Of a DNA stretch of 64,000 bases, positions 15,245-63,054 are shown in pieces. Source of the stretch: an uncultured virus (IMG/VR IMGVR_UViG_3300030333_006991) (taxonomy: Duplodnaviria > Heunggongvirae > Uroviricota > Caudoviricetes); the IMG/VR virus record IMGVR_UViG_3300030333_006991. One strand, written 5' to 3'. Below the pieces are notes generated by a model, which saw only the letters and a program-made list of their open reading frames with translations, did no database searches and was not told where the DNA came from. Within the stretch, counting starts at the first letter, position 1; every line of letters starts with the position of its first letter. The translations under genes and the position numbers were made by a program.

Positions 15245-15255
15245 TTCTTATAGTC
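15245..15255 (+). promoter_or_regulatory. TTCTTATAGTC promoter motif
   Basis: 30 nt before ATG 15285. Confidence 0.8.
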
Positions 15256-30516: not shown

Positions 30517-30547
30517 TTCACTCGCCTCAATAGTCAAATAGGGGCTC

Positions 30548-34876: not shown

Positions 34877-34943
34877 AAAAAAGTTGAGTAATATCAGAGT
34901 CGCTGAAAACGACACGATAAAAAATAAAATGGAGATGAAGAAA

Positions 34944-35597
34944 ATGGCGATGAGAAGTCAAATTTATGAATGGAGCAACCTCGCCCCTAATGGGACAGGT
35001 TCAACACTACAACGAAGAGCAGGAGATATGCCTGTTGCTATCACACAAGGGCAGCAGTTTAGTATCTTTACAGGTAGCATTGGTTACAACTGCACAAAGC
35101 CCGCAGAGACAACTGCTACGCAGTTTGTCGTAATCGAAGATATTGCTTGCACACCTGCTACACAGTCGGCTGACCCAAAGTTGGCAAACGAGAATGGTGG
35201 AGCGGTTCAAGTAAGAATCAACACAACTGAATACTTCCAAAACCCTGATGTAACTGCTATGGCAGGTGTTACAGGAATGGCAAGTCCTTACCCAAGAGGT
35301 ATCGCTGTGACTACTCCTACTGCAACTAACCTACTAAAGTCCTTCGACCTTTACCCTGATGTATATGTTCTACCAGGTCAGGTTTGGGATGTCCTTTACA
35401 CACAAGAGGGAGGAACCCTATCAGCCAACACTACTTCCTGTGGTGTCGCTGTATTCGTCAAGTATACACTTTACGATGGGCCTGACGCTCTAATTGCTAA
35501 CAAACTTCTTGAATTGGGTATCACCGTAAACCCTGCGAATGTTGATTGGTATAAGAGAACATTGATTGAACAGCAAATGGGCGGAGGTATGGCTTAA
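34944..35597 (+). CDS. putative major capsid protein 1 (beta-rich, possibly single jelly-roll)
   Basis: Paralogue of the next gene; alternating beta-strand pattern and C-terminal helix DALIANKLLELG; no TM. Confidence 0.55.
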   Translation: MAMRSQIYEWSNLAPNGTGSTLQRRAGDMPVAITQGQQFSIFTGSIGYNCTKPAETTATQFVVIEDIACTPATQSADPKLANENGGAVQVRINTTEYFQNPDVTAMAGVTGMASPYPRGIAVTTPTATNLLKSFDLYPDVYVLPGQVWDVLYTQEGGTLSANTTSCGVAVFVKYTLYDGPDALIANKLLELGITVNPANVDWYKRTLIEQQMGGGMA

Positions 35598-36323: not shown

Positions 36324-37598
36324 CTATGAGTTTACTATGCTTTCAAGGAATGCTTTGAGAGATTTACTCTCTTGTGTTTGTCGTTGATGTAGATGTTGTT
36401 TGGTTTCTTCCGTTTGGTTCAACCATTTCGCATAGTTATCTTTTACATCGTGTAAAGCCTGATTCCACGCATCCATGTTTAGATATTCTTCACGACTCAC
36501 ATACTTTGCACTATTCCCACTTGCTTCTTCAATAGTTGGATATTGTTTACAAATAACAGGGCAACCTCTTGAAATTGCTTCTGTGGCAACCTGCCCATAG
36601 CCTTCTGAGGCTGAAGGAAAGAGGAAGACATCAATTTCATCATAAAAGGTTTGAATGTCTTTCACATATTTTATTATTTCATAGTTAGTCGGTATAGGAG
36701 TGCTATACACTTCTGCACCTAAAGCGATGTAATCTTCAAATCCTCTTACTCCGTCACCCCAACCTCCGCCAAGAATCTTGAAGTGAATGTTGGGGTTCTC
36801 TGTGATAAGATGTCTCAAGTGTTGGCTACCTTTTCTTGGAATGGGGTTGATGAATCCCACTGTGAAGGGTTCGCTAAAGTTTGGATTTCTTTTGTTCTTA
36901 GACCACCATGTTTCATCTAACGGAGGGTGAAATACGATTGAATTACCTTTTCCGAAAAAACATTCGACTACCTTTTCATTGAAATCCGTAATGTGTATAC
37001 GGCCTTGTTCACCTTTACACACATGAGTTTTGGTTAGAGGTAATTTGCTCAATTCGTCTTGGAGTGTAACACCTTCTTCATTCTCATCTTTCATTATGCT
37101 GCGGAAATACTCTAAGGTTTTGTCGTAACTCTTGGTGTGCAAAACATCGTTTTCCAATTCAGCCGAAATGTGTCTATCAAAGTCATACGATAGCGTTACA
37201 AATTTAGGGAACAATTTTTTAACTTGTTCGATGTGACCCTCATCTTCGGTAAGAGGTATCTTCTGAGCAAGGATGATAGCACAATCAAAACTCTTGTAAT
37301 CTACTTCTTTCTCTATTTGGTCTAACCATTTTGTAATCAAATGTTTTAGAGAAGGCTCTTTGAGGCACGGAATAATCTTGTAACCATAATCCATCCCTTC
37401 AGCCAATTCTAAAATTTCTCTATTCAATACTCTTATCACAGGAGCAGAACCATTATCCTGTTCTTCTACCTCAGGGACAGGTGTTATTCCCCAAGCATCT
37501 ACACCTTCAGAGCATAAAGCCTCTACTAAACGATGTGGATATACCTCTCCACCCCCCCATAAAGGAGGCCAACCTAAAGATAAAACGGCTACTTTCAT
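36324..37598 (-). CDS. glycosyltransferase family 4 (GT-B)
   Basis: PPLWGGGE, KGS, DVFLFPSASEGYGQVATEAISRGCPVI. Confidence 0.9.
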   Translation of the reverse strand: MKVAVLSLGWPPLWGGGEVYPHRLVEALCSEGVDAWGITPVPEVEEQDNGSAPVIRVLNREILELAEGMDYGYKIIPCLKEPSLKHLITKWLDQIEKEVDYKSFDCAIILAQKIPLTEDEGHIEQVKKLFPKFVTLSYDFDRHISAELENDVLHTKSYDKTLEYFRSIMKDENEEGVTLQDELSKLPLTKTHVCKGEQGRIHITDFNEKVVECFFGKGNSIVFHPPLDETWWSKNKRNPNFSEPFTVGFINPIPRKGSQHLRHLITENPNIHFKILGGGWGDGVRGFEDYIALGAEVYSTPIPTNYEIIKYVKDIQTFYDEIDVFLFPSASEGYGQVATEAISRGCPVICKQYPTIEEASGNSAKYVSREEYLNMDAWNQALHDVKDNYAKWLNQTEETKQHLHQRQTQESKSLKAFLESIVNS

Positions 37599-37603
37599 AG
37601 TAA

Positions 37604-37744
37604 TCACAGATGGAAAATTAAATGGTATGCTCCTATCATGGCAGCCGTAACAATAGCGGAAAACACATTAGCGATGAATTGAACATAAATCTCATCGTGC
37701 AAATCATCATGCACTTCTTTACCAAACAGAATCCATTTCTTCAT
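37604..37744 (-). CDS. 46-aa membrane peptide
   Basis: ATGA overlap with the FkbM stop; MKKWILFGKE..IFHL. Confidence 0.45.
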   Translation of the reverse strand: MKKWILFGKEVHDDLHDEIYVQFIANVFSAIVTAAMIGAYHLIFHL

Positions 37745-38442
37745 GCAACCACCCTTGAAAACAAATAATCTGCTTGGTGTTCATCAGCGTATAAACTCCC
37801 TTCGTTGTTACTTACCTCTTGGAAACCGTATTCAGCCAACAAACTCCGAATATCATCTAAAGGGGGTGCATCCTCATATTCAGGATTTCGACAACCTTCC
37901 GTAATTATGTATTTAATTTCAGGTAAAAGTGTGGAGGCTCCTTTCAAGGCTTCAATTTCTGCCCCTTGTAAATCTAAACAAAGCAAATCAATAGTTTTGC
38001 CTTCACGATTTGTCTGCCACCATGATTCTAAAGTTTCAGTTTCTACTGATACAGATTGCTGTTCAAGTTGCGGCCTTCCTTCTTCGTTTTTACCTTTGAA
38101 AACACTTGACGCTCCTACATTACCGTTTACTACGATATGAAACTCCAAGTTAGTTTTTTCAGACCATACGGCTTTATCAACTAATTCTATTTCGGGGAAA
38201 AACTGTATGTGGTGTTTGACTAATTCAATAAGGTCGGGGTGGCATTCCCAACATACTACTTCAGCAGCGAAATGTTTGTGTAGCCAAATAGCATCTAACC
38301 CATCTCTACTACCTAATTCTACAACCGTATTGATTTCTCCTTTAGGTATATCATCTTTGAATAAAAAGTAAGCCCCTCCTCCGCCTTGATTGTGTTTTAC
38401 GGCAAACTCTACTGCCCTTTTGTGTATACTATCATCCACCAT
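37741..38442 (-). CDS. FkbM-family SAM methyltransferase
   Basis: VELGSRDG, ECHP, GASS, IDLLCLDLQGAE. Confidence 0.9.
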   Translation of the reverse strand: MVDDSIHKRAVEFAVKHNQGGGGAYFLFKDDIPKGEINTVVELGSRDGLDAIWLHKHFAAEVVCWECHPDLIELVKHHIQFFPEIELVDKAVWSEKTNLEFHIVVNGNVGASSVFKGKNEEGRPQLEQQSVSVETETLESWWQTNREGKTIDLLCLDLQGAEIEALKGASTLLPEIKYIITEGCRNPEYEDAPPLDDIRSLLAEYGFQEVSNNEGSLYADEHQADYLFSRVVA

Positions 38443-39325
38443 TAACACCACCCTTAGTTTGGGTCACATAGTATAAGTGGTCTAACTCTTCTTCAGTAGG
38501 GAAAATTAAATCTTCAGGTTTAGGAACCTCGTATGAACCATCTCCTATCCAAGTGTGAAACTTCACTGTTTCTTCGTAGATATTAGTGTTGTCCAATCCT
38601 GCGTTATTCTCCGAAGTTATCCCTGTAAAAGTCCCAACCTCTCCAATGTTTTGAATCCGTGAAACCGCAGGTTCAATACAAACCCTACCTTTAATCCAAT
38701 AATGAGCCATAGGTGTCGCCCATGAACCTTTCAAATCACAATGAGTTTCTTGGATATGTTTCCATAACCATGCTTTATTCCATTGGTGAGGCATAGATAC
38801 ATACGCAAAATCTTTGCTAATTCCGAACCACCCTTCAGAATCAATTTCTTCCCACACTCTTTTCCATGTGGCGAACCCGCAACAATTAAACCAATCGAGT
38901 GCATTTACTTGATTAGCAGCGAGGTTTTCTCTTTTATTACTGCTCATCATTGTTACCGAAAAAACTCTTTCATCGTCTTCGTAGCGTTCTAAAAGACGAG
39001 ATACAAAATTAAGTGCGGATTCTGCTAACACTACATCATCTTCGATTACAATAACACGGTCTGCCTCTTCTTCGTTGAAAGCCCACGATAAAACATATCC
39101 CATATTCCCTGCACAACCAAGATTATCTGCGTGATTACGATATTCGATTTCTAAGTTAGAGTTTTCAAGAACATTTTGATTTTTCAATTGATTCTTTTCA
39201 TCGCCTCCATCAAGAGAGCAAATAATCGGATATTTTTCTACCCCTTTACATCTTTCTAAAGCAGTAATAACTTCTTGAAAATATTCAGGTCTGTTATACG
39301 CACTTATGCAAATAATGGTTTTCAT
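38432..39325 (-). CDS. GT-A fold glycosyltransferase (GT2/GT13-like)
   Basis: AYNRPEY, SLDG, NLGC, VIEDD, SRIQNIG. Confidence 0.85.
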   Translation of the reverse strand: MKTIICISAYNRPEYFQEVITALERCKGVEKYPIICSLDGGDEKNQLKNQNVLENSNLEIEYRNHADNLGCAGNMGYVLSWAFNEEEADRVIVIEDDVVLAESALNFVSRLLERYEDDERVFSVTMMSSNKRENLAANQVNALDWFNCCGFATWKRVWEEIDSEGWFGISKDFAYVSMPHQWNKAWLWKHIQETHCDLKGSWATPMAHYWIKGRVCIEPAVSRIQNIGEVGTFTGITSENNAGLDNTNIYEETVKFHTWIGDGSYEVPKPEDLIFPTEEELDHLYYVTQTKGGVNGG

Positions 39326-40341
39326 CCTTGACCCAATCCTTGTAATCTTTCCAAATCAGAGGCGACCATGATTTTCACCATTTGCTGCAAATCGGTTTTA
39401 GGCTCCCACCCTAATTCTGTTTTAGCCTTTGTTGCATCACCTCTAAGAACATCTACTTCGGCAGGACGCATGAAACGAGGGTCTTGTTTCACATACGGTT
39501 TCCAATCTTCAATACCGACTTCTTGGAAAGCCAACTCAAGAAAATCTCTAATACTGAAAGTTTTTCCTGTGGCAAGCACATAATCCTTAGGCTCATCTTG
39601 TTGAAGCATTAACCACATACCTTCCACATAATCAGGAGCATACCCCCAATCTCTCTTAGCATCAAGTGTTCCAAGAGCGATATGGTCTTGTAGACCTAAA
39701 TGAATCCGAGCCACACCATCCGTAATTTTCCGAGTTACAAACTCTATCCCTCGCCTTTCTGATTCGTGATTGAATAAAATGCCTGAACACGCAAACATAT
39801 CATAGGATTCTCGATAATTTTTCACCATCCAAAAACCGTAAAGTTTAGCCACACCATAAGGAGAGCGAGGATAAAATGGGGTTGTTTCCGAGGCAGGATT
39901 TTCTACCATCTTTCCAAACATTTCTGAAGTTGAGGCTTGATAGAAGCGAAGGGGCGGAGTAGATTCCTCATTTTGATATTCTCTAACCGCTTCCAACATT
40001 CTCAACACACCTAAAGCATTCACATCACTTGTTTGCATAGGGATTTCCCACGAAGAACCCACAAACGATTGCGCTGCGAGGTTATAGACCTCATGTGGAG
40101 TGGATTTCTTTAGGGCTCGTAAAAGGGAGTTTTGGTCAGTTAAATCGCCTGTGAGGAAGTGAAAATTAGGGTGGTCTTCAAGGTGGGCTGTATTCGTTCT
40201 ATTCGGTTTAGATGTTCTGCGTTCCAAACCGTATACGATGTAACCCTTTTCTAAAAGGAAGTCGGCTAAATGACTCCCATCCATTCCGTTTACACCTGTT
40301 ATCAAGGCTCTCTTTTCCTTGTTGTTATCTTGTATTTCCAT
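39322..40341 (-). CDS. gmd: GDP-mannose 4,6-dehydratase
   Basis: ALITGVNGMDGSHLA, YNLAAQS, FYQASTSE, PRSPYGVAK, ILFNHES, FVTRKIT, RDWG, RPAEV. Confidence 0.97.
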   Translation of the reverse strand: MEIQDNNKEKRALITGVNGMDGSHLADFLLEKGYIVYGLERRTSKPNRTNTAHLEDHPNFHFLTGDLTDQNSLLRALKKSTPHEVYNLAAQSFVGSSWEIPMQTSDVNALGVLRMLEAVREYQNEESTPPLRFYQASTSEMFGKMVENPASETTPFYPRSPYGVAKLYGFWMVKNYRESYDMFACSGILFNHESERRGIEFVTRKITDGVARIHLGLQDHIALGTLDAKRDWGYAPDYVEGMWLMLQQDEPKDYVLATGKTFSIRDFLELAFQEVGIEDWKPYVKQDPRFMRPAEVDVLRGDATKAKTELGWEPKTDLQQMVKIMVASDLERLQGLGQG

Positions 40342-40342
40342 A

Positions 40343-41239
40343 TTATCCTCTCTTGAATGTTTTGGTTCCGTTCAGGACGGAGTATTCTATTTTTTCATCT
40401 CCTGCACAACCTCTTTCTAAATTGAGTGTTTCTTCAAACCATTTCCAATACTCTTCATCGTTGATGTTGTTATCTACCATTTTCAATGCCGCAAACATTT
40501 CACTAAAACCATCTCCTCGACTTATGGACTTGATTCCTGATTCATCTTTATGAGTCGCTCCTTGTTGAGTTGTTTGATTGATATGCACTCGATAGGTTCC
40601 TAAAATTGCCTCTATTTGGTGGCAATCTTCAGGCCATCTTTTCGCAATCTTACAATTCAATTCAGTGTCTTCTCCCATTGTGTGCTTGATGTTCCATCCA
40701 CCCACAGTTTCTACTGCTTTTCGTGAGTAGATATGTGTGGAAGTCATCAAGGGACTCCAAAATATTCTGAACCATCTGTGAGGAGGATATGTTTTTTCCC
40801 ACTCTCTGTGATAGCCTCCTACATTCGTGGTTTTGTATTCGTTACCTTTGTTAGAAACAACTATTACATCTACATCAGCCGCACCCCAAATAAACTTCAG
40901 ATTTGGATTCTCTTTGAGAAGATTCGCACAATCTTCTAATTTCAAATCATACCATGTATCATCCGAATCTAAAAGAGCGAGATAAGGATTATTTCCTGCT
41001 TCTGTGGCTTGATTACGGGCGTCAGCGATTCCAATACCTTCTTGTTGTATGATATGGATTCTATCATCTTCGTAATCGGCAAGTATTTTCTTTGAATGCC
41101 ATTCGTGGTCTTCAGGTGTTCCGTCTGAAATGTAAATCTGAAATTTTTGATAAGTTTGTTTCAATACCGAATCAATGGCTTCTCTTAGATGATGCGGTTC
41201 TGTTTTGTAAACAGGTATGATAATATCAAACTCAACCAT
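40343..41239 (-). CDS. glycosyltransferase family 2
   Basis: IIIPVYK, GIADARN, LLDSDD, GED. Confidence 0.9.
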   Translation of the reverse strand: MVEFDIIIPVYKTEPHHLREAIDSVLKQTYQKFQIYISDGTPEDHEWHSKKILADYEDDRIHIIQQEGIGIADARNQATEAGNNPYLALLDSDDTWYDLKLEDCANLLKENPNLKFIWGAADVDVIVVSNKGNEYKTTNVGGYHREWEKTYPPHRWFRIFWSPLMTSTHIYSRKAVETVGGWNIKHTMGEDTELNCKIAKRWPEDCHQIEAILGTYRVHINQTTQQGATHKDESGIKSISRGDGFSEMFAALKMVDNNINDEEYWKWFEETLNLERGCAGDEKIEYSVLNGTKTFKRG

Positions 41240-41338
41240 ACCTCAACTATGGGCAGATGGTATTTATCTATTACCTCTTTTCATCAACACTCGATGTTAT
41301 CGTTTATAGCCTTGTTTGTAGAAATAGGTATGAGAGGC

Positions 41339-42715
41339 ATGGCAAAGACGCAGGAAAAAACAGTGTTTTCCTTGATGGGGAACGACATTACAGAGACACA
41401 AATTAAGCATTTAGTGTCGCTTCTGCGTGAAAATCCCAACCTCGATGAGGAGATGTGTATAGATGGTCAAGCAGAAGAATATCTTGGGCGACCTGACTAT
41501 CATCAAACGGTTCAATCGTTTTACGACCACGAATCTCCTGTAATGAGTTATTGTGCTTACCAAGTCATGCAAGAACACTTCATCATTGAAGATGAGTGTT
41601 GGTTCAAAGATTCTCACTACTCGGCTTCGGCTAAACGGATTCCTGCTTTGTATGATACTTTGCCTTTGAAAAAAACTCCTCAGCATAAGGATGACCGTGT
41701 AAGGATTCCGAAAAAGGGTCATTACTTTTGTAAACACAAAAAGGATAATACAAAGTGGGTGTTTTCTTTTCAAACATGGGAAGGAGCGGAATTGGATATA
41801 CGAATATCCACAGCAGAAAGCCACGATAGAATAAAAGGAGTGTTTGATGCTATTGACTCTTTTTTTGCTCTCAAAGGCCCTCTGAAAGGGGCTTGCTTCA
41901 ATCCTCATTGGAAATGGGTGGAGCCTGAATATGCGAATTGGGATTCCGTCATTTTGGGTGAAGAAGTGAAAGACGCATTAGATTTGAACATCGTCACATT
42001 TCTCGATAATTTGGAATTATATGAACAGCACAATTTACCGACATCCCGTGGAATACTACTTTCAGGATTGCCAGGCACAGGAAAAACTCTGACTATGGAA
42101 GTATTGCTTAACGAGTTTTCACAATTCACTCGTATCTATGCTCCTGCTGAAACTTTGAGCCAACCCAATGCCATTAACGACACATACGCTTTGGCTCGGA
42201 AATTAAGTCCTACACTCGTTATTATTGAAGATATTGATACACTTGGTCAATCTCAAGACCACCAAGATAGGTCAATCTATGTTTCTCAATTACTTTCTTC
42301 TCTCAACAGTGCGGAGCCGAATAGTGGAGTTATCACAGTGGCATCTACAAATTATCCTCAAGCCTTAGACATCGCTCTGAGAGATAGACCAGGTCGTTTC
42401 GATGCTCGGATTAACTTCACTTTGCCCAACTCTGAGGAAAGGATGAAGATTCTGAAGAAGTATTCTTCTCCCTTCAAGATTTCTGATGTGAAATGGAAAA
42501 ATTGGGCTAAGAAAACAGAAAACTTCACAGGAGCGTGGTTGCGTGAGTTAGTTACTACTGCTTTCACCCTTGCCGTGAGAGAAGCAAAGAGTAATAAGAA
42601 ACCTGTCCTCAAAGAGAAATACATGGAACAAGCATTTTCTATCGTAGAGAAAACTCGGTCTTTGGTTAATCAAAGAAGGAGTCAAGAAGAAGAGAATGAA
42701 ACTTTGTTCATGTAG
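41339..42715 (+). CDS. AAA+ ATPase (single AAA domain, CDC48/PAN/FtsH-like)
   Basis: GLPGTGKT, IIEDID, ASTN, DRPGRFD, FTGA. Confidence 0.9.
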   Translation: MAKTQEKTVFSLMGNDITETQIKHLVSLLRENPNLDEEMCIDGQAEEYLGRPDYHQTVQSFYDHESPVMSYCAYQVMQEHFIIEDECWFKDSHYSASAKRIPALYDTLPLKKTPQHKDDRVRIPKKGHYFCKHKKDNTKWVFSFQTWEGAELDIRISTAESHDRIKGVFDAIDSFFALKGPLKGACFNPHWKWVEPEYANWDSVILGEEVKDALDLNIVTFLDNLELYEQHNLPTSRGILLSGLPGTGKTLTMEVLLNEFSQFTRIYAPAETLSQPNAINDTYALARKLSPTLVIIEDIDTLGQSQDHQDRSIYVSQLLSSLNSAEPNSGVITVASTNYPQALDIALRDRPGRFDARINFTLPNSEERMKILKKYSSPFKISDVKWKNWAKKTENFTGAWLRELVTTAFTLAVREAKSNKKPVLKEKYMEQAFSIVEKTRSLVNQRRSQEEENETLFM

Positions 42716-43679: not shown

Positions 43680-43693
43680 GCATTCTTATAGTC
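43680..43693 (+). promoter_or_regulatory. GCATTCTTATAGTC promoter motif
   Basis: 29 nt before ATG 43722. Confidence 0.8.
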
Positions 43694-43721
43694 CTTCGGG
43701 ATAGTAAGGGTGGTGAAAACA

Positions 43722-44168
43722 ATGGCAGGTATAGGTTCGTTTCTCCGTAATAACGCTTGGCTCATTATTGGAGGAGCCGTTATAGGATTTGTTTTTAGAA
43801 GACAGATTTCTGATTTTGCTACATCTTTGAGTGGGCGTCTATTGAAACGAGATGAAAAGGCAACAGAAATTGTTTATCGCCCTCAACCTATTGCAGGAAC
43901 AGGTCAATTTGGTCGCACTTTAGGGCAAACAAGAGTTATGTCCACAGGCGAAGCCCCTCCTATGTTCGATAGAGGGAGAGCAGTTGGTCAAACCGTAGCC
44001 ACTAATCCTGAGTCGGAAATAACAGATACGCCACTTCCTATGGGTCCTGTGCATGACCCTGCTACTGATACCCAAATGTTTAATGGAGCATTTACTGATG
44101 GAGCCTTGAAGTATACGGTTGCAGGTTTCGGAGCGAATTATTCGGGTTCTGCGATTGGGGTTCATTGA
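43722..44168 (+). CDS. N-terminal TM virion-type protein
   Basis: AWLIIGGAVIGFVF; GRTLGQ and GRAVGQ repeats. Confidence 0.75.
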   Translation: MAGIGSFLRNNAWLIIGGAVIGFVFRRQISDFATSLSGRLLKRDEKATEIVYRPQPIAGTGQFGRTLGQTRVMSTGEAPPMFDRGRAVGQTVATNPESEITDTPLPMGPVHDPATDTQMFNGAFTDGALKYTVAGFGANYSGSAIGVH

Positions 44169-44184
44169 TTCGTGAGGAATAAAT

Positions 44185-44736
44185 ATGAGAAAAAGATTCA
44201 TGGATAAAGGCTCAGAGATGGGACTTTGGAAGGCTGAAGATTTCAGTGCTGAAGATGGAGATGGTGAAGAAGTTTCCATTCCTAAAAGAGATTTCACAAT
44301 TCCTTTTCTATCTTCTTTGAGAGATGATACTCTCACATTAGGCAGCCTTTGTCTTTCCGTAACCGCAGGTGCAGCAGGTATTTTTACAAAAGAAAGCCTT
44401 GTAGATAACACATGGAAAAGTGTTCTTCGTTACGCTTCGATTGGACTTGGAGCGTTTGCTTTAGGAAGGATAACACGAAATGGAGATGTTAATTCACTTG
44501 CTGAAACCTTTGCTCAAGAGAGAAACATGATGGAACAGGTCTTGGATAAAATGGAACATGATATTGAAGAAATTGAGGAAGAAGCCGCCACTAATGCAAG
44601 GAAACAGGTTTTAGATGTAGGCGGAGGGATGTTGAATGCGTTCCACGCCACAATGGGTCCTTCTTTGACGAGTAGTAACAATGCTTACACAACAAGAGCG
44701 CATGGTCAAGACCCGTTCTCACAAATCCGCTACTGA
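44185..44736 (+). CDS. two-TM protein with WKAEDFSAE and LAETFAQE linkers
   Basis: Linker motifs and hydrophobic helices. Confidence 0.75.
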   Translation: MRKRFMDKGSEMGLWKAEDFSAEDGDGEEVSIPKRDFTIPFLSSLRDDTLTLGSLCLSVTAGAAGIFTKESLVDNTWKSVLRYASIGLGAFALGRITRNGDVNSLAETFAQERNMMEQVLDKMEHDIEEIEEEAATNARKQVLDVGGGMLNAFHATMGPSLTSSNNAYTTRAHGQDPFSQIRY

Positions 44737-44769
44737 TAGGCTTATTACATAGGACGGTTTAGTAACTGT

Positions 44770-45669
44770 ATGAATACTCTTGAGAATGTCTATTGTCTTG
44801 GTTGTAAAACACGCCATGAAAAAGTCGTTATCAGCGAAATAAACACTATTCAAGTCCGTGGGTCTACTCGGCATCAAGCGAAAGGCGTCTGTCCTGAAGG
44901 TAAAACTTGGACAAAAATCTTGAAGGCTTCGGAAATACCCACTATGCAAGATGCAGTAGGGGAAACTGTTGAAGTCGAGAGCGTAAAAGAGGAACCCCTT
45001 TCTGAAACCCCTTCTAACGAGGTAGTTGAAGAAGAGAAAGAAACCACAGTAGATGTTTTTGAACGGGCGAAGCGGGAGGCTCAAATAGTTGAGGAATCGC
45101 AACCTCCAAGTGTTGAACAGGTTGTCGTTGTTGAAGATGTGGAGTCCGTAAGTGTGGAAACGGGGGAAGAAGATATTCAAATCGAACAACCACGGATTCA
45201 AATGGAAGAGGAAGAGATGGAAGATGAAGAGGAGGATGGTGGCGAAATACACACTCTTCATACCACTTATCCTCGACCTCGTAAAAGAGTGGAATTGCGA
45301 GAACCTCTTAGACAGCCTCCTAAAAAGGAAACTCCTTCGCCTTCACCTCATGTGGAAAAACAGAATCGGGAGCGAGCATATCGAATCGGTTTTGAAATAG
45401 GTGGTCGTGTTGCAGAGGAAGAAGGTATTGAGTTTGGTCATTTTATCGAAGAGTGTTGGGAAGATACACGCATCCCCCGACAATATAGCGAGGATTTTGT
45501 TCAAGGTTATCTTGCGGGAGGTATGCAAGTAGTTGAAGAATCCATTGGAACCGAATCTCCTGATGAAATGCCAACAAATAACATGAAGCCTACTACCGTA
45601 GCAGGAATCGCAGGATTAGGGATTTTTGGAGCGTGGTTAGCGAGTAGATTGAATCAGGGACAACGATAG
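44770..45669 (+). CDS. Zn-binding (DUF5679-like) N-terminus, Glu-rich linker, C-terminal TM
   Basis: YCLGCK..AKGVCP; terminal AGIAGLGIFGAWLA. Confidence 0.7.
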   Translation: MNTLENVYCLGCKTRHEKVVISEINTIQVRGSTRHQAKGVCPEGKTWTKILKASEIPTMQDAVGETVEVESVKEEPLSETPSNEVVEEEKETTVDVFERAKREAQIVEESQPPSVEQVVVVEDVESVSVETGEEDIQIEQPRIQMEEEEMEDEEEDGGEIHTLHTTYPRPRKRVELREPLRQPPKKETPSPSPHVEKQNRERAYRIGFEIGGRVAEEEGIEFGHFIEECWEDTRIPRQYSEDFVQGYLAGGMQVVEESIGTESPDEMPTNNMKPTTVAGIAGLGIFGAWLASRLNQGQR

Positions 45670-45719
45670 AGCCTCCATAGGTTTTTATTGTCGTTCTGTT
45701 TCATAAGGAGGGGAATCCT

Positions 45720-46199
45720 ATGGGAATTAGAAGACAGGTTATTGAGTTTTCTTACGGTGATGATGGTTCTCAACCCGTAGAAGATTTAGAAGAGTTTCCC
45801 GAAAAACAGCAAAGTATCATCTCTTCGGGCTTCGGCAACGCTACTGAGCCGAGTGCTGCAACAAAGGTTAATCAATTCATAACTGTTGAAGCGATGGGTT
45901 CAACACCTGGTCTATGGGCGACAGAAACTAATTGGTGTCCTGTGGGATATATGCAGATTCAAGTAGAGAACACTTTCTTTTACAATTTACCTGACGGGAG
46001 GATGAGTGATGGGCTTTCAGGAACAGCAGCCCCTTATCCTATTTCTGTTCAATATCAGAGGTCGTATAATTCATTTCCGAGAGTTTATCTTTCACAAGGA
46101 ACCTCTTTTGATGTCTTATACTATATGGTAGAATCTTTTATCGGCACTCCTGATAATTTTTCAGGTTTGCCAATGGAATACAACACAGTGAATTATTGA
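45720..46199 (+). CDS. N-terminal part of a third capsid-protein paralogue
   Basis: EPSAATKVNQFITVE, MQIQVENTFFY, GTAAPYP, FPRVYLSQGTSFDVLY align with MCP1/2; last strand and helix missing. Confidence 0.75.
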   Translation: MGIRRQVIEFSYGDDGSQPVEDLEEFPEKQQSIISSGFGNATEPSAATKVNQFITVEAMGSTPGLWATETNWCPVGYMQIQVENTFFYNLPDGRMSDGLSGTAAPYPISVQYQRSYNSFPRVYLSQGTSFDVLYYMVESFIGTPDNFSGLPMEYNTVNY

Positions 46200-46208
46200 G
46201 GTGAAAAT

Positions 46209-48353
46209 ATGGGATGGACTACGATGCTAAACGACTTTACTTCTACCAATGAGTATACTCCTATCCTTGAACAGACAGCAATAAACAATCTTGTAGATTA
46301 TACTCCTGAAACTCTGATGATAACTTGTGCTGCTATGAATACTCTTGGTTCAGGAGAATACACTATTTGCTTAGGAGGTTATTACATCTGTAATGGAACG
46401 AGCGGCATTCCTTTAGGAGATTCTTCGCCTGTGATTATGAGTGGGTTACAAACTGCCACGGATGCCACGACAGGAGAACCTGTTTTTGGGATGTGGAGAG
46501 CAATCTCGCTACGAGATGTAGTGAGTAATCCTGCTCTAACTTGTCCTGAATTATCTACTGTTACACAAATTGTGGCTATTCCTTCTACCTCCGCAAATTT
46601 TCAGGCTAAAAGCCAAGATTATATGATTTTTGGACATACTGCTATTGATTATACAGGATTAGGTTATGGGGCTAACTTACCTTCGGCTCCTAACTCTGAA
46701 GTTTCTCCTTTTGGAATGCTGTTTAATACTCTAACCTCGATAGCCTCAGTATATTTTACTGATACATTAGCAACAAACCCTCCTCAAGCATGGGTCGAGA
46801 CAGATTCAGGGGCAGCCGCAGCGATTCACCCTAACACTCTGACTGATGCCGTGTATGATGCTCGTATGGACCGCATTGTAGCGGTGGGAAATGCCTCTGA
46901 AGGAGGTGGCGGGCAGACATCTGTGGGAATATGGATAGAAATGTTGGATGATGCTACCGCTCCGACTTTTGCTTACAATGGGAATATCGCAGGAACCACG
47001 GGAACACCCGTTTATCCGTGTTATTATCGTAGTGTTGATATTGTGAGTGCGGAAGCAGGTTTACCTACTATTTTCATGGCAGGAGGAGCGACCTACGCTT
47101 GGCCTAATCCTGACCCTCCTGCGACAGGCATTCTTACTTTGTATCAGGCGAATTATGATAAGGCGTGGGGAGGAGGTAATCCTCGTATAGCAGGTTTGGA
47201 TAATGGGCAGTTAAATCCCGCAGGATTGTGGGAAACCTTATTTGTGGGGGTTCTTGAGGATATGCCTACAAATATCACTATGGTTCAAAGAGTTGTCGCT
47301 GATGGAGAAGATGTAATCTTTGTCGGAGGTTCTAATGGACTCGGACCTTTCCTATATTCTATTAGTGGGCTGACCACTCAAGGAGGAACGAATCTTATCG
47401 AGCCTATTGGTTCCTCGACAAAAGTAGAGTTTGCTGAACAGAAAGTGGATTCAGGCTCCTTAATCTCTACGGTGGAACAAATTCCTACATACACCACAGG
47501 GGTCTTGACGGCTCCTCTTTCCGTAGTTGGCTTCACAGGAAGGAAGGCTAAATTGATGTCGGGAGGGCTCGTTTATCGTTCCTATATCTATCCTCGCACA
47601 CCTCCTGCATACAGTCCTACATTTGGTTCTGATAATGGATTTTTAATTTCTCTGAGCCGAGGTGCAAATCTATGGAATTTCACCATTAACCAAGACGCTC
47701 CTTCAACTCAATTATCGAATCTAAGAATAGGATATTTAGAAAACGATGGAACAGGGAATCCTGATGTATGTTACCTAATCAATTCTGAATATGGTTTAGG
47801 GGCGACACCTGCAACTAATTTCGCAACAGGAGCGTTTGCTACCAATAATATTGCCCGATGTTACTTTGAATATATTCTGTATGATGGGGTTGATGCTTTA
47901 GTTGCTAAAAAGTTACAACAATTAGGCATCAGAGTCACAATTACCAATACTGAATGGTATAAGCAAACTATTCTTGGACAGGGGCTTGATGTGGATGCTG
48001 ATTTCTTCCGAGAGTGGAGCGATTTACAAGATGAACAAAATGCTAACCGTCAAAAGTTGGCCGAAAAGTATGGAGCAAAACGACCTGCTAAAAGACCTGT
48101 GCGAACCGAATTGTTCGATGAGTATGCACACATGGAAGAATTGATGCAAGAAATGGATGCTATGAGAGAAAACGAGGCTGACTTTGAGGTTCCGTGGAGT
48201 GATGAAATCGGAGACATGAGAGAAGCCCGAATACGAGAAAAGACAACTCAAGATGTCGTGAGAATAAATGAGTTGGTCGAGTCAGGGGAATTGGCCGATT
48301 TAGGTGAAGTCGAAGTTGAGGAAAATGAAAAACAAACAGAAAAGGATGAGTAA
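46209..48353 (+). CDS. large beta-rich spike/vertex-like protein carrying the C-terminal part of the capsid paralogue
   Basis: CYFEYILYDGVDALVAKKLQQLGIRVTITNTEWYKQTIL matches VFVKYTLYDGPDALIANKLLELGITVNPANVDWYKRTLI. Confidence 0.75.
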   Translation: MGWTTMLNDFTSTNEYTPILEQTAINNLVDYTPETLMITCAAMNTLGSGEYTICLGGYYICNGTSGIPLGDSSPVIMSGLQTATDATTGEPVFGMWRAISLRDVVSNPALTCPELSTVTQIVAIPSTSANFQAKSQDYMIFGHTAIDYTGLGYGANLPSAPNSEVSPFGMLFNTLTSIASVYFTDTLATNPPQAWVETDSGAAAAIHPNTLTDAVYDARMDRIVAVGNASEGGGGQTSVGIWIEMLDDATAPTFAYNGNIAGTTGTPVYPCYYRSVDIVSAEAGLPTIFMAGGATYAWPNPDPPATGILTLYQANYDKAWGGGNPRIAGLDNGQLNPAGLWETLFVGVLEDMPTNITMVQRVVADGEDVIFVGGSNGLGPFLYSISGLTTQGGTNLIEPIGSSTKVEFAEQKVDSGSLISTVEQIPTYTTGVLTAPLSVVGFTGRKAKLMSGGLVYRSYIYPRTPPAYSPTFGSDNGFLISLSRGANLWNFTINQDAPSTQLSNLRIGYLENDGTGNPDVCYLINSEYGLGATPATNFATGAFATNNIARCYFEYILYDGVDALVAKKLQQLGIRVTITNTEWYKQTILGQGLDVDADFFREWSDLQDEQNANRQKLAEKYGAKRPAKRPVRTELFDEYAHMEELMQEMDAMRENEADFEVPWSDEIGDMREARIREKTTQDVVRINELVESGELADLGEVEVEENEKQTEKDE

Positions 48354-48512: not shown

Positions 48513-48526
48513 GCATTCTTATAGTC
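48513..48526 (+). promoter_or_regulatory. GCATTCTTATAGTC promoter motif
   Basis: 29 nt before ATG 48555. Confidence 0.8.
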
Positions 48527-48554
48527 CTTCTGTTCAATTAAGTTGAGGGATGAT

Positions 48555-50462
48555 ATGAGCGAAGACATTGAAATCGAAGATGTTGAAGACGCTCTGCGTA
48601 GAGCAGACGAATTAGCCGACTTAACAGGCCGCTCAAAAAAGGACATCATAGCCGATTTGCTTGATGATGGACAATTGAATATGAGTGCGGGAGAAGATTC
48701 AGAAGAAAAAAAGGATTTCCTTGATGTCGCTCAAGAGCAAGCGGAAAAGTTGAAATCACTTTTAACCACTCTCATCCCTGTCTTTGCGTTGCTTATGGGA
48801 ATAGGTGCTGAAGGACTCGGTGTGGTTGATGTAACAGGATGGGGTGAAGATTCTATGTGGGATGATAGTAACCCTTACACACCTCCACCTACTGTTTGGG
48901 GTTGCATGGATTCCAATGCGAGGAATTACGACTCGATGGCAACGGCAGATGACGGTTCTTGTGAATATGATGATAATAATGGTGGAGGAGGTGGCCCTCC
49001 TGTAAATTGCCAATGGTCGTGGGAGGATAATTCTTATTTGGATAACGGAAACTTTTTAGTGATTCGGGCTACTTTCTCTGACGATTCATGCCCCCATGAA
49101 ATGGAAGGCCACTTCACTGTGGAAATAATCAAAGATAATGAATACTACGATGAAGATGAATGGCACAATATCAGATTCAAACACCACTACGACTTAGAAC
49201 ATCAATTTGTCGAGTTAGAAGCAGGTGTTTATCGAAATCACTTCAAGTTTGAAACAAATGACGGTTCACAGTGGACTTGGGACTCTCCTGAAACCCATGA
49301 AGTATTTGATGATACTTGTTATCCTCAAACAGAATTGGATGCGCCCACTCTAAGCACAGATGGTAACGACTTAATTGTGGATTTGGTTTTCTCTGATATG
49401 GGTGGTTGTGGGCAAGATATTGAAGTGGAAATGGAAGTTTGGAGAGCAGGAGAGTTATATGATAGTTTAGATTATGGCGAAGTCCATAGTGGTGTCTTTT
49501 GGATTGAACCTGAGGGTGATTCAACTATGCGTGTGCAAGGCAAGGCTGAATTAAGTGACCTTCCTGATGGTGATGATTGGACAGTTAAGGCAAGATACGC
49601 TCATGCTAACGCTGATGATGCACCGTATGAAAGCGGATGGCGAGAATCTAATTCTGTTGTTATTGACGAAATTGATGATAACATTTACGGTTGCACCGAT
49701 TCCGAAGCCACCAATTATGATTCTATGGCTACCTCAGATGATGGTTCATGTGAATATCCTCCCGAAGACCCTTGTGATGTGGAAATACACAATCATTATC
49801 GGGGCCATGTAGCGGAGGATGCAGAACAAGATGCTATCTTAGTCGCCTTTAGAGTTGTGCCGAGCAATTGTGAAGAAGAACAGATTGAAATAGACATCGA
49901 GTTATTCCAAAATGGCTACGAGGCAAATTACACTCATTGGTTAGAAGTCAGTGGAGATGATGAATACACTGATGTATCTCATGTTTTTGATGGTGTAGCC
50001 GTGGGTAATTCTTGGATTCCGAAAATCACAGCCTCTCTTAACGATGAAGTTTTAGAGCAGGTTAATTTTTGGGGTATAGATGTTGAAGAACAAGAGCCTG
50101 AAATATGTGAAATAAACCTTTATTGGATTGGCTTCGCTACGAATGCTACTCATGCTCAAGTTGGATATGACCTTGATTGTGGTGAAGAACAAAACGACCT
50201 TGACGGCTACAATGTATCGGTTCAATTCTTGGTGTATGAAGTTGGTTCAGCGAACAATTCTTCCGCTCAACCTATTCTCTATGAAACACGCTTGCATTAC
50301 ATTCAAGGATGGGTTGAAGACAACCAATTGATTACTTTGACTAATTTCACACAGTCGAACAACACCCATTACGATTTCTATTGTTATTTCACATGGATTG
50401 ATGGTGAAGGAGAATCACGAATGATGGAATACAAATGGTTGAATAGAGAATTGGAGGCGTAG
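48555..50462 (+). CDS. acidic membrane-anchored surface protein with GCxDxxAxNYDxxATxDDGSC repeats and Ig-like domains
   Basis: Two repeat copies (~48900 and ~49690); TM near residue 80. Confidence 0.8.
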   Translation: MSEDIEIEDVEDALRRADELADLTGRSKKDIIADLLDDGQLNMSAGEDSEEKKDFLDVAQEQAEKLKSLLTTLIPVFALLMGIGAEGLGVVDVTGWGEDSMWDDSNPYTPPPTVWGCMDSNARNYDSMATADDGSCEYDDNNGGGGGPPVNCQWSWEDNSYLDNGNFLVIRATFSDDSCPHEMEGHFTVEIIKDNEYYDEDEWHNIRFKHHYDLEHQFVELEAGVYRNHFKFETNDGSQWTWDSPETHEVFDDTCYPQTELDAPTLSTDGNDLIVDLVFSDMGGCGQDIEVEMEVWRAGELYDSLDYGEVHSGVFWIEPEGDSTMRVQGKAELSDLPDGDDWTVKARYAHANADDAPYESGWRESNSVVIDEIDDNIYGCTDSEATNYDSMATSDDGSCEYPPEDPCDVEIHNHYRGHVAEDAEQDAILVAFRVVPSNCEEEQIEIDIELFQNGYEANYTHWLEVSGDDEYTDVSHVFDGVAVGNSWIPKITASLNDEVLEQVNFWGIDVEEQEPEICEINLYWIGFATNATHAQVGYDLDCGEEQNDLDGYNVSVQFLVYEVGSANNSSAQPILYETRLHYIQGWVEDNQLITLTNFTQSNNTHYDFYCYFTWIDGEGESRMMEYKWLNRELEA

Positions 50463-59129: not shown

Positions 59130-62100
59130 CTACATCCAATCCTCTAAAGAGGTCTGTTCACCCTTATCTTTCAATCCAAACATATCTCTCGTCCATTCTT
59201 TGAATTGATAGTATTTCTGTTCGTTATAGGTTGAGCAACCGTAAGTGCGAATCAAATGTTCGATGAGGTTTTCATATTTCATTACACTACCTGCGTAAAC
59301 AGTTTGAATAATTTTACCGTCACATTTCACATCAACTAAAAGAGTAAATGCACATTTTTCACAAGTTTCAGGCAGTTTACCTGTTTTACTATGTGAGCGG
59401 TTATGATGACCACATTTCCTACAAAAAGGGGATGCCTCTTGTTTCACGATTTCTCGACAAGTTTTAGCAAGAGGAGGTCTACGATAAGAGTGATTACACT
59501 TCACACACCTGACCTTTTGTTGCCCGAAAGCACGAATGTTACCTCGTAAATCACGCAGTAAATGTCTATCCAATAAACGGCTTGATTGGTCTACATTATC
59601 CACACCCCTCAAAATCTCTCCTAAGCGGAATTGAGCGTCTACCTTTTCTCTCATGTTTTTCAAATCAGTATACGGATTCACCTTTAGACCTGCTCCTATA
59701 TCACTCATATCATGGGTGTAACCGATACCTTCAAACTGACCTTCGGTTCCGAGCCTGTCTTCAACAAACTCTGAATCTAAATCCTTTGGATTAACTGCAT
59801 CCCATGTTCTTTCATAATCTGTCGTAGTGTAGAACCACGCTGAATCCACATTCAAGGCTTCTTTATCAATTTCCGCAGGATTTATCTGTGTGGTTAAAAT
59901 CAATGGAGCATCCATTTGCCCTCCTCTGTGTTCAGAAAGGAAGTTACGACTAAAATTCAAAATACAATCTAAAAGCAGAATAATGGAATCAATATCTCCA
60001 TCACTGTTTCTTCTTCGCCCTGCAATAGAGAAAGGATGGAAATAGCCTCCCTTAATATCAGAAAATCCAATCAACCTACAAAGAATCGCTCCTGATGTGT
60101 GTGGTGCTAAGGTGGCGAACAAATGACCAATAAGTTGTTCAGGTTTTTCCAATGCGTAAAACGGTTTCTCCTCGTATAGCCGAGTCAAAATATCATCCAC
60201 ACAGTTAGCGGTTCGGAACAAAATATCTTTTAGGGATGAGGGGGCAACGAAATCTTGTGACCTTAATTCGCACATCTGAGTATCGGAACGCAATTCTTCT
60301 CCGTGGCAATCATGCGTGTAGCCAAGTTGATGTGCCTTTTCAAGAGTGAGTCCGATTTCTTTAGGTGTGAAGTGCGTTAAAGTCATATCTACCATATCGA
60401 ATCTAACCGTGCCGTCACGGAAGACGGATAATCCATGCTTGTGTCTCAGCATAGCCTTCGCAGGATGCTCAGGTATCTTTTCCTTAGAAGTCAGTCCTTT
60501 TACTCCTTTTACACCTCTATCCCCATAACCTGCTATTTGATACCCTTTAGACCACATATCTGTGAAATCTACTTCAGGCCATTCATCCTTTGGTGTTCGA
60601 TAGGAAGGGGTAAAGGCGAAAGTGGTTTCCGTTCCATGCTTCGGACACACTTGCTCCGTAGTAAATCCTCTTGGAACACTTGCGTTACCTGAATTAACTT
60701 CTGCTTGAATCTGTTCAGGATTGATAGCGTAGTTTAGACATTCAGAACAAAATCTCCATCCCACCTGTAAAGATTTTTTTCCTTGTCCTGCCGCTTCTTT
60801 TAGAGAACGAGATTTCAAATCATGCCCGACAGGAATCAAACCGTGAATTGGAGGTTTCATTTCTCTGATAGCCACTTTCTCAGGTTTAGCCATTCGGGTT
60901 CCTATTCTAAAAGTGACTCTTGGCCTGACTTCATAGGAAGAGAGTGCGTTGATTAAATCTAATCCGTTAGTAAACTCCTCAGTAGAACCTTCGTATTTCA
61001 CCCCTGCGAGGTAGTTGTTGAGGTATACTGCCGCTTTCTCACCGTAAAGGGTGCGGTTTTTATCCACATTTATGTTTAATTGGTATATGGTTTCTAAGGC
61101 TGATTCGCTAACTGTGGCTTCGTTATTACAAAGGTCAATAGTGGTTTCTTTGAAACAACGGAGTAATTCATCGGCTGTTACATCTGAAAAGTGGGCGACA
61201 TAATCAGGAGCCATAGGGATTTTATGTGTTGAAGATTGTTCTAATGCTTCATCGAAATCATTCGGATAAGATAACGATTTCTCTTTTAGGACTTCTTTGT
61301 GCCAATCTTCGTTGTATGGACTCGGCATCAGATTGTGATTGTTTTCCTTAAACTCTCCAAACGGAATCAACATCTCTCCTATGTCCCATACTTGTTCCAC
61401 TTTTCCTGTAAACAAGATATTTTCACCTTCAAGAGCCTGAATTAACTCGTTTTCATCATTGAAACGGCAAGCCGAGCCGTCTTTGAATTGGATATACGGT
61501 CCTTCGATAGAATCACATGGAGAGACAACTGTGGCTTTACCTGGTCTTTCCACCTTCATTTGCGTAGCAGCAATAATAAATCCTCCTGTCGCTCTCATAG
61601 ACGCAGGATGGATTGATGTAGCAGCGAGTCCTGCGGCACGACTCCTTCCATAGCGTAGACGAAAGCCTCCTTTAGCCATTGGTTGGGAAATTGTCGGCCT
61701 ACCTGCAACAGCATCGGAAATGTATTTGTCTTTCGGTTTGAATGTGACTTTCTCATCGGTTTCCTTTGTAGATGTGCAGTAGTGTTCAAGGAAACTCCAT
61801 CCATCGAGTTGAAGTTGGTCTGTGTATTTTTTCAATTTAGGTGCTTTCAACAGCATCCCTTCACACATCACAAGAAGCATTCCTTCTCGGACTCGATTAT
61901 CTTTTACTCGTTCTAAATCACGCCCACCTGAAACCTCTTTTCCAACACCTTCACCTGTAATGTAAACAGGCACTTCTTGGCATATTGACCTCATTTCATC
62001 AGCCGCAGGTTTGTATTGGAGATTGTGATACAACATTACCTCTTCGATATACCGTTCAACCTCGGCAGATTCCATTATAGGAACACTAAGTCCGAAATCT

Positions 62101-62705: not shown

Positions 62706-63014
62706 TTAATTCTGTCGTATCTCTACATTGTAACCATCTGAAAGCAGGATTTCTTTGGCTCTGCGGATTTGGTTGCCTTGAAGCACGATACAGTCGTCTT
62801 TAATCGTCCCACCTGTTGCACATTTCGACTTCAATTTTTTAGCAATCTTTTTCATATCGCTACCTTTCTCAAATCCTTTTACGAGAGTAACCTTTTTGCC
62901 GAATCTTCGGACTTCCGTAGAAACAAATAATCGAGAGGCTTCAACATTAAGTTGGTCAAGGATGTCGCCCATACTATCAGGCACAAAACTGTCTAAGTCG
63001 TCTTTCCAACTCAT
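62706..63014 (-). CDS. sui1: translation initiation factor 1 (SUI1/aIF1)
   Basis: RRFGKKVTLVKG, KLKSKCATGGTIKD, LQGNQ. Confidence 0.93.
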   Translation of the reverse strand: MSWKDDLDSFVPDSMGDILDQLNVEASRLFVSTEVRRFGKKVTLVKGFEKGSDMKKIAKKLKSKCATGGTIKDDCIVLQGNQIRRAKEILLSDGYNVEIRQN

Positions 63015-63054
63015 CGGCTCACACACATTTCACTTTTCAACTATTTGACTGTTC

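Follow-up and report, generated by a model that had tools for sequence, protein, structure and literature searches.

No building block of virus capsids is more widespread than the jelly-roll shell protein, which is treated as a single folding unit. In the adenovirus penton base, PRD1 P31/P5 and STIV A223, a jelly roll serves as the base from whose loop end a large exposed domain emerges, and in Qbeta A1 and the luteovirus CP-RTD the capsid protein carries a readthrough extension. Incomplete sandwiches completed by a strand of another polypeptide are known, in turn, from chaperone-usher pili. Viruses of the Sphaerolipoviridae/Simuloviridae type are described as combining two single-jelly-roll capsid proteins with five-fold spike complexes. 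Here we examine two adjacent open reading frames, ORF1 and ORF2, in a 64,000-nucleotide stretch of the uncultured virus IMGVR_UViG_3300030333_006991 (this whole stretch is called the window, and all positions refer to it). We consider it likely that they are separate genes into which a third jelly-roll paralogue split long ago, and that their products complete the fold in trans.

ORF1 (45720–46199, + strand) encodes a protein of 159 amino acids made of the jelly-roll strands B to H (residues 1–134) and a 25-residue tail with a conserved FIGTPD motif; strand I is absent from it. A Shine-Dalgarno-like AAGGAGGGG (45705–45713, +) lies upstream. ORF2 (46209–48353, + strand) encodes 714 amino acids in three parts. 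The first (residues 1–546; 46209–47846) is predicted by AlphaFold2 (AF2) modelling and by VIA and Foldseek comparisons to be a seven-bladed beta-propeller, evolves fast and probably faces outward. The second (residues 547–640; 47847–48128) is common to all ORF2-type proteins and holds strand I (CYFEYILYDG), a helix, the motif WYKQ and a DFFxEW / RPxKRxVRTExFD extension, whereas the third (residues 641–714; 48129–48353) is a charged, mainly acidic, helical tail that ends at a TAA stop. The junction between the two ORFs reads TAT TGA GGT GAA AAT ATG, with the TGA at 46197–46199 and the ATG at 46209–46211. Since the two starts lie 489 nucleotides (163 codons) apart, both ORFs share the same frame, as a first-pass annotation of this DNA had already noted, quoting the same spacer. 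The ORF1 stop overlaps the ribosome-binding site of ORF2 (46197–46204, +, for the two together), a GAGGTGA at 46198–46204 that lies 4 nucleotides ahead of the ATG and is kept in two related metagenomic contigs (L002 and L003).

Two full-length jelly-roll paralogues are encoded elsewhere in the window: paralogue A (34884–35597, +; 237 amino acids counted from a TTG, the true start being probably one of the ATGs just ahead of MAMRSQ) and paralogue B (P0002; 35632–36222, +; 196 amino acids), which we used as reference for the unsplit fold. ORF1 and ORF2 are homologous to consecutive parts of these proteins. When both were compared by BLASTP with all six-frame ORFs of the window, ORF1 residues 1–134 matched paralogue B (34.6% identity over 136 columns, E 1e-21) and ORF1 also matched paralogue A (29% over 117 columns, E 2e-11). 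ORF2 residues 538–589, for their part, matched the directly following portion of paralogue B (42% over 52 columns, E 3e-9), and residues 552–591 the end of paralogue A (52.5% over 40 columns, E 5e-9). Unrelated proteins came next, with E values of at least 2.1 for ORF1 and at least 0.13 for ORF2, so the paralogue matches stand far above chance. The matched pieces are contiguous in the paralogue but separated here by ORF1 residues 135–159 and ORF2 residues 1–537, approximately 560 residues in total, which bears out the initial suggestion of a third paralogue split over two ORFs around a large insertion. That suggestion had also named the two paralogues a pair of major capsid proteins (MCPs); the homology of ORF1 to both of them holds, whereas they are only probable capsid proteins. 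Paralogue B has 1584 relatives in marine metagenomes, and the A–B gene pair is kept in all seven whole loci centred on it (L004–L007 and L011–L013).

The AF2 model of paralogue B (45 relatives; predicted local distance difference test score, pLDDT, 67.5; predicted template modelling score, pTM, 0.66) is a beta-sandwich of eight strands (residues 7–14, 24–27, 49–58, 71–79, 82–84, 119–121, 126–134 and 143–152) followed by two helices (154–164 and 171–185), and all its top fold matches in VIA-align and Foldseek are jelly rolls or cupins. By alignment, ORF1 stops just past the seventh strand (DVLYY), and ORF2 residues 547–600 correspond to the eighth strand and the helices. The missing strand and helix had been placed near 47860–47975; YFEY does begin at nucleotide 47862 and WYKQ at 47955. 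In the model of ORF2 (nine orthologues, pLDDT 68.5), residues 3–546 form a confident all-beta domain, with pLDDT mostly between 70 and 92, that matches seven-bladed propellers in VIA (Z 24–26, root-mean-square deviation (rmsd) 2.6–3.7, 290–315 aligned residues) and, in Foldseek, CylK and sialidase propellers with E values down to 2.6e-8. By contrast, residues 546–604 have a pLDDT below 50 when folded without partner, and the last ~110 residues are modelled as charged helices. The propeller evolves faster (dN 0.325) than the C-terminal module of ORF2 (dN 0.087), and in the long ORF2-type proteins described below it is replaced by unrelated sequence. Of the "spike domain" that had been proposed as the insertion, the large inserted domain is thus present, modelled as a propeller, whereas its role as a spike, like the location of the pair in a capsid, is one that we infer.

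The split is conserved. A metagenome scan retrieved the locus in L002 (89% identity in ORF2) and L003 (67%), both with the same order: an ORF1 of ~160 amino acids, TGA, GGTGA and an ATG 6 nucleotides after the stop. The TGAGGTGA motif is invariant in the window and these two contigs at dS values of 0.4–1.7, with variable third positions on its flanks. Among the copies compared, dN/dS ranges between 0.05 and 0.21 across ORF1 (0.05–0.12), the propeller part and the C-terminal part of ORF2, so both ORFs are under purifying selection. The TGA, for which read support had been requested at the outset, is also covered by contigs of the public runs X3, X4 and X5, which belong to different studies: positions 46197–46199 are unchanged, and show no indel, among the differences listed for them (23 less-supported differences fall outside the listed set), even though these contigs do differ from the window at 46172–46173.

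The products of the two genes are likewise unfused in relatives. ORF1 homologues fall into 20 clusters, 16 of them of 158–162 amino acids, one of 173 and three consisting of short fragments. A word-indexed search for ORF2 retrieved four clusters, all of 709–714 amino acids, and an exhaustive one retrieved 79 proteins. Six full-length orthologues (692–711 amino acids, 33–80% identity) align from near both N-termini, and in all nine orthologues the alignment starts at the protein's own first residues. Another 36 proteins, each of at least 800 amino acids (872–1515), match only positions ~475–650 of the ORF2 profile, near their C-termini. Profiles of ORF1 and of the unsplit family detected a jelly-roll half at the N-terminus of none of the 43 ORF2-type proteins of at least 690 amino acids in the libraries searched. 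Four IMG/VR records of 123–166 kb (G001–G004) each hold exactly one adjacent pair of ORF1-type and ORF2-type genes, together with the unsplit pair and other unsplit paralogues. Adjacent pairs therefore occur in all seven distinct contigs (the window, L002, L003 and G001–G004), three of them in frame and four out of frame. In the latter (loci L008, L009, L010 and L017), the two genes lie in different frames, with offsets that differ in direction and gaps of 4–11 nucleotides, and their open frames measure 166 + 977, 180 + 966 and 181 + 982 amino acids in L008, L009 and L010, and 215 + 431 in L017. No relative turned up in IMG/VR with ORF2 or its alignment A4 as query, or in GTDB genome contigs with the ORF1 alignment. 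The L017 pair (358–2991, − strand, in G002; 11-nucleotide gap) lies right next to the unsplit paralogue pair, and a further unsplit paralogue, of 285 amino acids, comes after it. Its ORF2-type protein has only ~340 amino acids before the strand-I module, from which it appears that the split design accommodates inserts of very different sizes.

Completion of the fold in trans, which the first-pass annotation had raised as one of two options, is the arrangement predicted by modelling of the heterodimer. The complex of ORF1 (20-row alignment) with ORF2 residues 530–660 (9-row alignment) was predicted in three runs, which scored 0.68, 0.71 and 0.61 (median 0.68; best control 0.08), shared at least 72% of their contacts and had a partner pLDDT of at least 58. 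With an unrelated protein standing in for ORF1, the score was 0.08. In the model, ORF2 residues 544–564 contact ORF1 residues 1–16 and 51–62, and the tightest contacts link ORF2 553–558 to ORF1 5–8 and 52–58, the counterparts of strands B (the first) and D (49–58) of the unsplit model. The place between B and D is that of strand I in the BIDG sheet of a jelly roll, so that the ORF2 strand is predicted to fill the strand-I position between ORF1 strands B and D.

We propose that the gene broke where a large insertion begins, within the loop joining strands H and I. Strands B to H would be made by ORF1, and ORF2 would supply the seven-bladed propeller, strand I, the two C-terminal helices as in the unsplit paralogues and the charged helical tail. 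Translation of ORF2 may be coupled to that of ORF1, the stop of which lies inside the ORF2 ribosome-binding site. The two chains would then form an obligate heterodimer in which strand I of ORF2 slots between B and D of ORF1, completing the BIDG sheet, so that the propeller comes to lie at the barrel's loop end. Such a complex would probably be a component of the shell or of the vertices of the virion of a large archaeal-type virus. Its propeller would be exposed and exchangeable and would contact the host, and the strand-helix unit would be the conserved plug.

Expression signals around the locus are compatible with this scheme. Sites of the GGTG/GAGG/AGGT type precede 26 of the 59 starts in the window, several in the form TGAGGTGA, AGAGGTGA or TAGGTGA. 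A promoter-like 13-mer, CTTATAGTCCTTC, stands at 43685–43697 (+), upstream of the gene run that holds ORF1 and ORF2, and its next copy at 48518–48530. With up to two mismatches it occurs 15 times in the window against 1.57 expected (e.g., at 15247, 25768, 31022, 43685 and 48518); 14 of the 15 copies are on the + strand, mostly 15–40 nucleotides upstream of gene starts. It is likely a promoter element with a TATA-like core. The copies at 43685 and 48518 bracket five same-strand genes that end with ORF1 and ORF2, and since there is none between 43697 and 48518, the region 43710–48353 would be co-transcribed and its translation coupled.

Several observations weigh against this interpretation, including the uncertain capsid assignment and the in-frame arrangement, both treated with the alternatives that they favour. 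The pLDDT of the complex is modest (56–64), and the mark set for the prediction tool, which 116 of 157 solved complexes and 2 of 215 mismatched pairs reach, is calibrated only roughly for our case because our own alignments were used. Moreover, each chain is homologous to one half of a family of single-chain proteins, so that the pass of the complex may reflect that likeness only. P0139 (872 amino acids) has a weak match to the ORF1 profile (independent E value 0.009) just ahead of its C-terminal module, which suggests that some ORF2-type proteins may keep more of the barrel, and upstream DNA was read for the L008–L010 copies only among the 36 long ORF2-type proteins. The public runs listed as carrying the stretch include no RNA run. 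Large insertions also occur in unsplit members of the family: in P0165 (405 amino acids) and P0185 (530 amino acids) they lie elsewhere, between profile positions ~70 and ~71–74. Together with the partial match of P0139, they indicate that in the jelly-roll family more than one loop can take up an insertion.

Split and complementation could both be real in a family that is not a capsid protein but another jelly-roll or cupin-like component, for instance of a surface or carbohydrate-binding complex, in an archaeal cell or a large archaeal extrachromosomal element. We regard this as unlikely, even though no sequence match to any capsid family was found. Pfam and PHROGs hold no family for ORF1, ORF2 or either paralogue, Pfam holds none for 18 related proteins (including 12 of the long ORF2-type ones), and the family profile retrieved no chain among PDB sequences at E ≤ 10. 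At the level of the fold, the unsplit paralogue has the SPV1 capsid protein (6oj0) as first match in VIA-align (Z 6.6, rmsd 4.3, 130 of 178 residues aligned, identity 13–15%) and as second match in Foldseek (E 0.019, in a search where E values were 0.014 or weaker), and STIV A223, HHIV-2 (chain 6h82_b, Z 6.1) and PRD1 P5 are also among its matches. However, cupins, Ena fibres and GOLD domains score Z 6.1–6.4, not separated from the SPV1 match, and these folds and nucleoplasmin domains fit as well as the capsid proteins do. Foldseek against BFVD yielded one match below 0.001, to an unnamed protein, the others being viral proteins that are either unnamed or unrelated. In the ESM Atlas, the closest clusters carry a label of 100% viruses, and the nearest named ones, PF18628 (0.77) and PF25513 (0.76), stay below the level that the tool treats as more than a lead. 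The capsid assignment is consequently weak, given the lack of Pfam, PHROGs and PDB-profile matches and the tie between SPV1 and unrelated folds, and the MCP label rests on a generic jelly-roll fold, gene order and the viral nature of the contigs rather than on a family match.

The genomic context speaks on both sides of this question. The elements encode cell-like functions, with a DNA polymerase D (PolD), TFIIB and SUI1, and their CheckV completeness is only 53–65%. But IMG/VR classes G001–G004 as viral and flags inverted terminal repeats (ITRs) in two of these four records, the longest contigs with the family are all shorter than 175 kb, and many small predicted membrane proteins are encoded around the locus. 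Likewise, two adjacent paralogues of ~200 amino acids are the layout of viruses with two single-jelly-roll capsid proteins. The contigs L011–L013 were binned into metagenome-assembled genomes (MAGs) labelled Acidiferrobacteraceae and Rickettsiales, unrelated bacteria whose inconsistent labels indicate that these are probably mis-binned, stray viral contigs. Taken together, the paralogue pair is probably, if far from certainly, a pair of capsid proteins. If so, the split paralogue would probably be, by analogy, a vertex or decorated-capsomer protein with its propeller outward. HI-loop insertions point outward in known vertical jelly-roll capsid proteins, and the outward placement is drawn from them.

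The element as a whole seems to belong to a group of large viruses or extrachromosomal elements of archaeal type that is as yet undescribed. Its cell-like genes include the full PolD large subunit (DP2; 59130–62681, −), which also occurs in all four related IMG/VR records, as well as TFIIB (29482–30537, −), SUI1 (62706–63026, −) and a protein of 1156 amino acids with a bacterial-type CCA-adding/poly(A) polymerase head (21860–25330, +). In relatives, genes for a GT2 glycosyltransferase and an AAA+ ATPase follow within a few kb after the paralogue pair. In the window, a glycosylation island (36324–41239, −) lies between the pair and the AAA+ ATPase gene (41189–42715); it encodes a GT4 enzyme, an FkbM-type methyltransferase, a GT2/GNT-I-like enzyme, a GDP-mannose 4,6-dehydratase and a GT2 enzyme, of which relatives have only GT2 there. 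Fragments matching the strand-I/helix motif (profile positions ~145–166) are found near both ends of the ITR-bearing record G003 (1622–1672, −, and 164505–164558, +) and near one end of a MAG contig (L014, 513–578); they may be relics inside terminal repeats. Downstream of ORF2, a protein of 639 amino acids (48543–50462, +) that is conserved in L002 begins with an acidic stretch and contains a single hydrophobic segment, and a Cys-framed motif, GCxDSxAxNYDSxAxxDDGSCEY, occurs in it twice; no Pfam or PHROGs family was found for it.

A different possibility is that ORF1 and ORF2 share no barrel at all, ORF1 being a stand-alone, truncated seven-strand jelly roll and the strand-helix unit of ORF2 a general docking or oligomerisation module that attaches a variety of large proteins to the shell or to one another. 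Such a role would fit the presence of this ~100-residue module at the end of at least 36 otherwise unrelated proteins of 872–1515 amino acids, and its extension past the jelly-roll part (DFFxEW, RPxKRxVRTE), which is specific to ORF2-type proteins. Yet every ORF2-type gene with readable DNA, in all seven contigs, lies directly behind an ORF1-type gene that lacks exactly that strand. The strand is also an integral and confidently modelled part of the sheet in the unsplit paralogue, and the complex model that fails with an unrelated protein puts it at the I position of ORF1. We find this alternative decidedly unlikely and retain a barrel shared by two chains.

Readthrough or recoding of the UGA, which had been proposed as the other way to complete the fold, would yield a single protein of ~873 amino acids with the propeller in the HI loop, perhaps beside the separate products in the clade of the window. 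In its favour, a single TGA and three sense codons separate the in-frame ORFs in the three contigs of this clade, and TGA is the ORF1 stop in all six junctions printed. Nevertheless, four of the seven contigs carrying the pair have it out of frame, with shifts in both directions. A readthrough fusion is impossible there and cannot be the general mechanism, and in-frame adjacency is expected by chance in one of three gene pairs. Fused homologues, the search for which had been recommended, are absent among the 79 library matches. The TGA itself behaves as an ordinary stop, ending 23 of the 59 listed genes of the window (TAA ends 23 and TAG 13), so it is not reassigned. The RNA around and after it (46170–46290) folds no better than shuffled sequences (z 0.52), and scans of the window found neither an Rfam family at gathering score nor a tRNA gene with ARAGORN. 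Furthermore, the spacer is accounted for by an ATG with a perfect GAGGTGA and by the conserved MGW N-terminus of ORF2, which among orthologues is of MG(W/L) type. On the sequence evidence we therefore hold readthrough to be very improbable, although a low level of it may occur in the in-frame clade of the window. Separate translation, which the earlier reading of the spacer as a Shine-Dalgarno sequence had favoured, agrees with the conservation of the TGA and the GAGGTGA in L002 and L003, with the frequency of this start signal in the window and with the four relatives out of frame. Programmed frameshifting in these relatives was also considered and rejected: the shifts needed differ (+1 in L008 and L009, −1 in L010) and each ORF2 has its own start.

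That the stop is a sequencing or assembly error, the refutation envisaged initially, or the mark of a decaying pseudogene, is suggested by nothing beyond the bare presence of an in-frame stop and has a negligible probability, as the same stop occurs in L002 and L003, stands unchanged among the listed differences in the X3–X5 contigs and is flanked on either side by sequence with dN/dS of 0.05–0.21. In addition, gene calls from several sources gave ORF1 products of 158–162 amino acids in 16 of the 20 clusters.

Separate genes with a barrel completed in trans invite a bolder interpretation, to which we give somewhat less than an even chance: a natural two-gene jelly roll would work as a plug and socket for spikes in an undescribed clade of ~160-kb marine archaeal-type, ITR-bearing, PolD-encoding viruses. 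The spike module would be anchored in the shell by one donated beta-strand and helix. The constant parts would be ORF1, as socket, and the last ~100 residues of ORF2, as plug; anything preceding the plug could be exchanged freely. At least 36 sequence-unrelated N-terminal parts of 700–1350 amino acids, in addition to the seven-bladed propeller found here, do share one plug. The fission may have been selected since it lets spike cassettes swap without touching the shell lattice. If the last strand does come from the next gene along with a large outer domain, the jelly-roll fold would tolerate fission at the HI loop, viruses could exchange host-contact modules behind a constant anchor, and a ready-made split pair would be available for display or assembly engineering. 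The group of ~160-kb ITR-bearing, PolD-encoding elements may even be a larger novelty than the split.

How does this locus compare with the systems outlined at the beginning? A literature search found no published split jelly-roll capsid gene with strand complementation and, among titles and abstracts, nothing relevant on this virus group or on virus-encoded PolD; the matching passages of PMC11706807 were unrelated. With viruses that have two single-jelly-roll MCPs (Sphaerolipoviridae and Simuloviridae; HHIV-2, 6h82), the element shares the eight-stranded sandwich, an adjacent pair of ~200-residue jelly-roll paralogues in a viral genome, a linear genome with inverted terminal repeats (in the relatives studied here), many small membrane-protein genes nearby and one more jelly-roll protein, a candidate for the vertices. 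It differs from them in lacking sequence or profile similarity, in a genome approximately five times larger (160–166 kb versus ~30 kb), in encoding PolD rather than relying on terminal-protein priming and in having the third paralogue split in two genes, an arrangement not known to be described for those viruses. The SPV1 capsid protein is the best structural match, yet its score is not separated from those of unrelated jelly rolls, and we found no evidence of common descent between it and the paralogue.

As to readthrough coat proteins, the clade of the window has in common with Qbeta A1 and the luteovirus CP-RTD an in-frame stop that separates a jelly-roll coat domain from a large domain downstream of it. 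Here, however, the downstream gene has its own ribosome-binding site and start, lies in another frame in relatives and holds a piece of the barrel. Three features of readthrough coats were examined, namely an in-frame arrangement across relatives, the lack of an own start downstream and an RNA signal or recoded UGA, and the locus shows none of them. The likeness to chaperone-usher pili concerns the mechanism. Their donor-strand complementation acts on an Ig-like fold, takes its strand from a chaperone or the following subunit and serves polymerisation, whereas in our case a jelly roll would receive its strand from a dedicated partner, encoded by the next gene and born of gene fission; no usher or chaperone family is among the Pfam matches of the window. 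The split would work like donor-strand complementation, but with another fold, origin and purpose. Among penton-type vertex proteins, of which 4ind and 1yq5 are found in the fold matches of the unsplit model, the known examples are single polypeptides or separate complete domains. The split pair resembles such a vertex protein, a jelly roll into which a spike domain has been inserted, except that two gene products would share its barrel.

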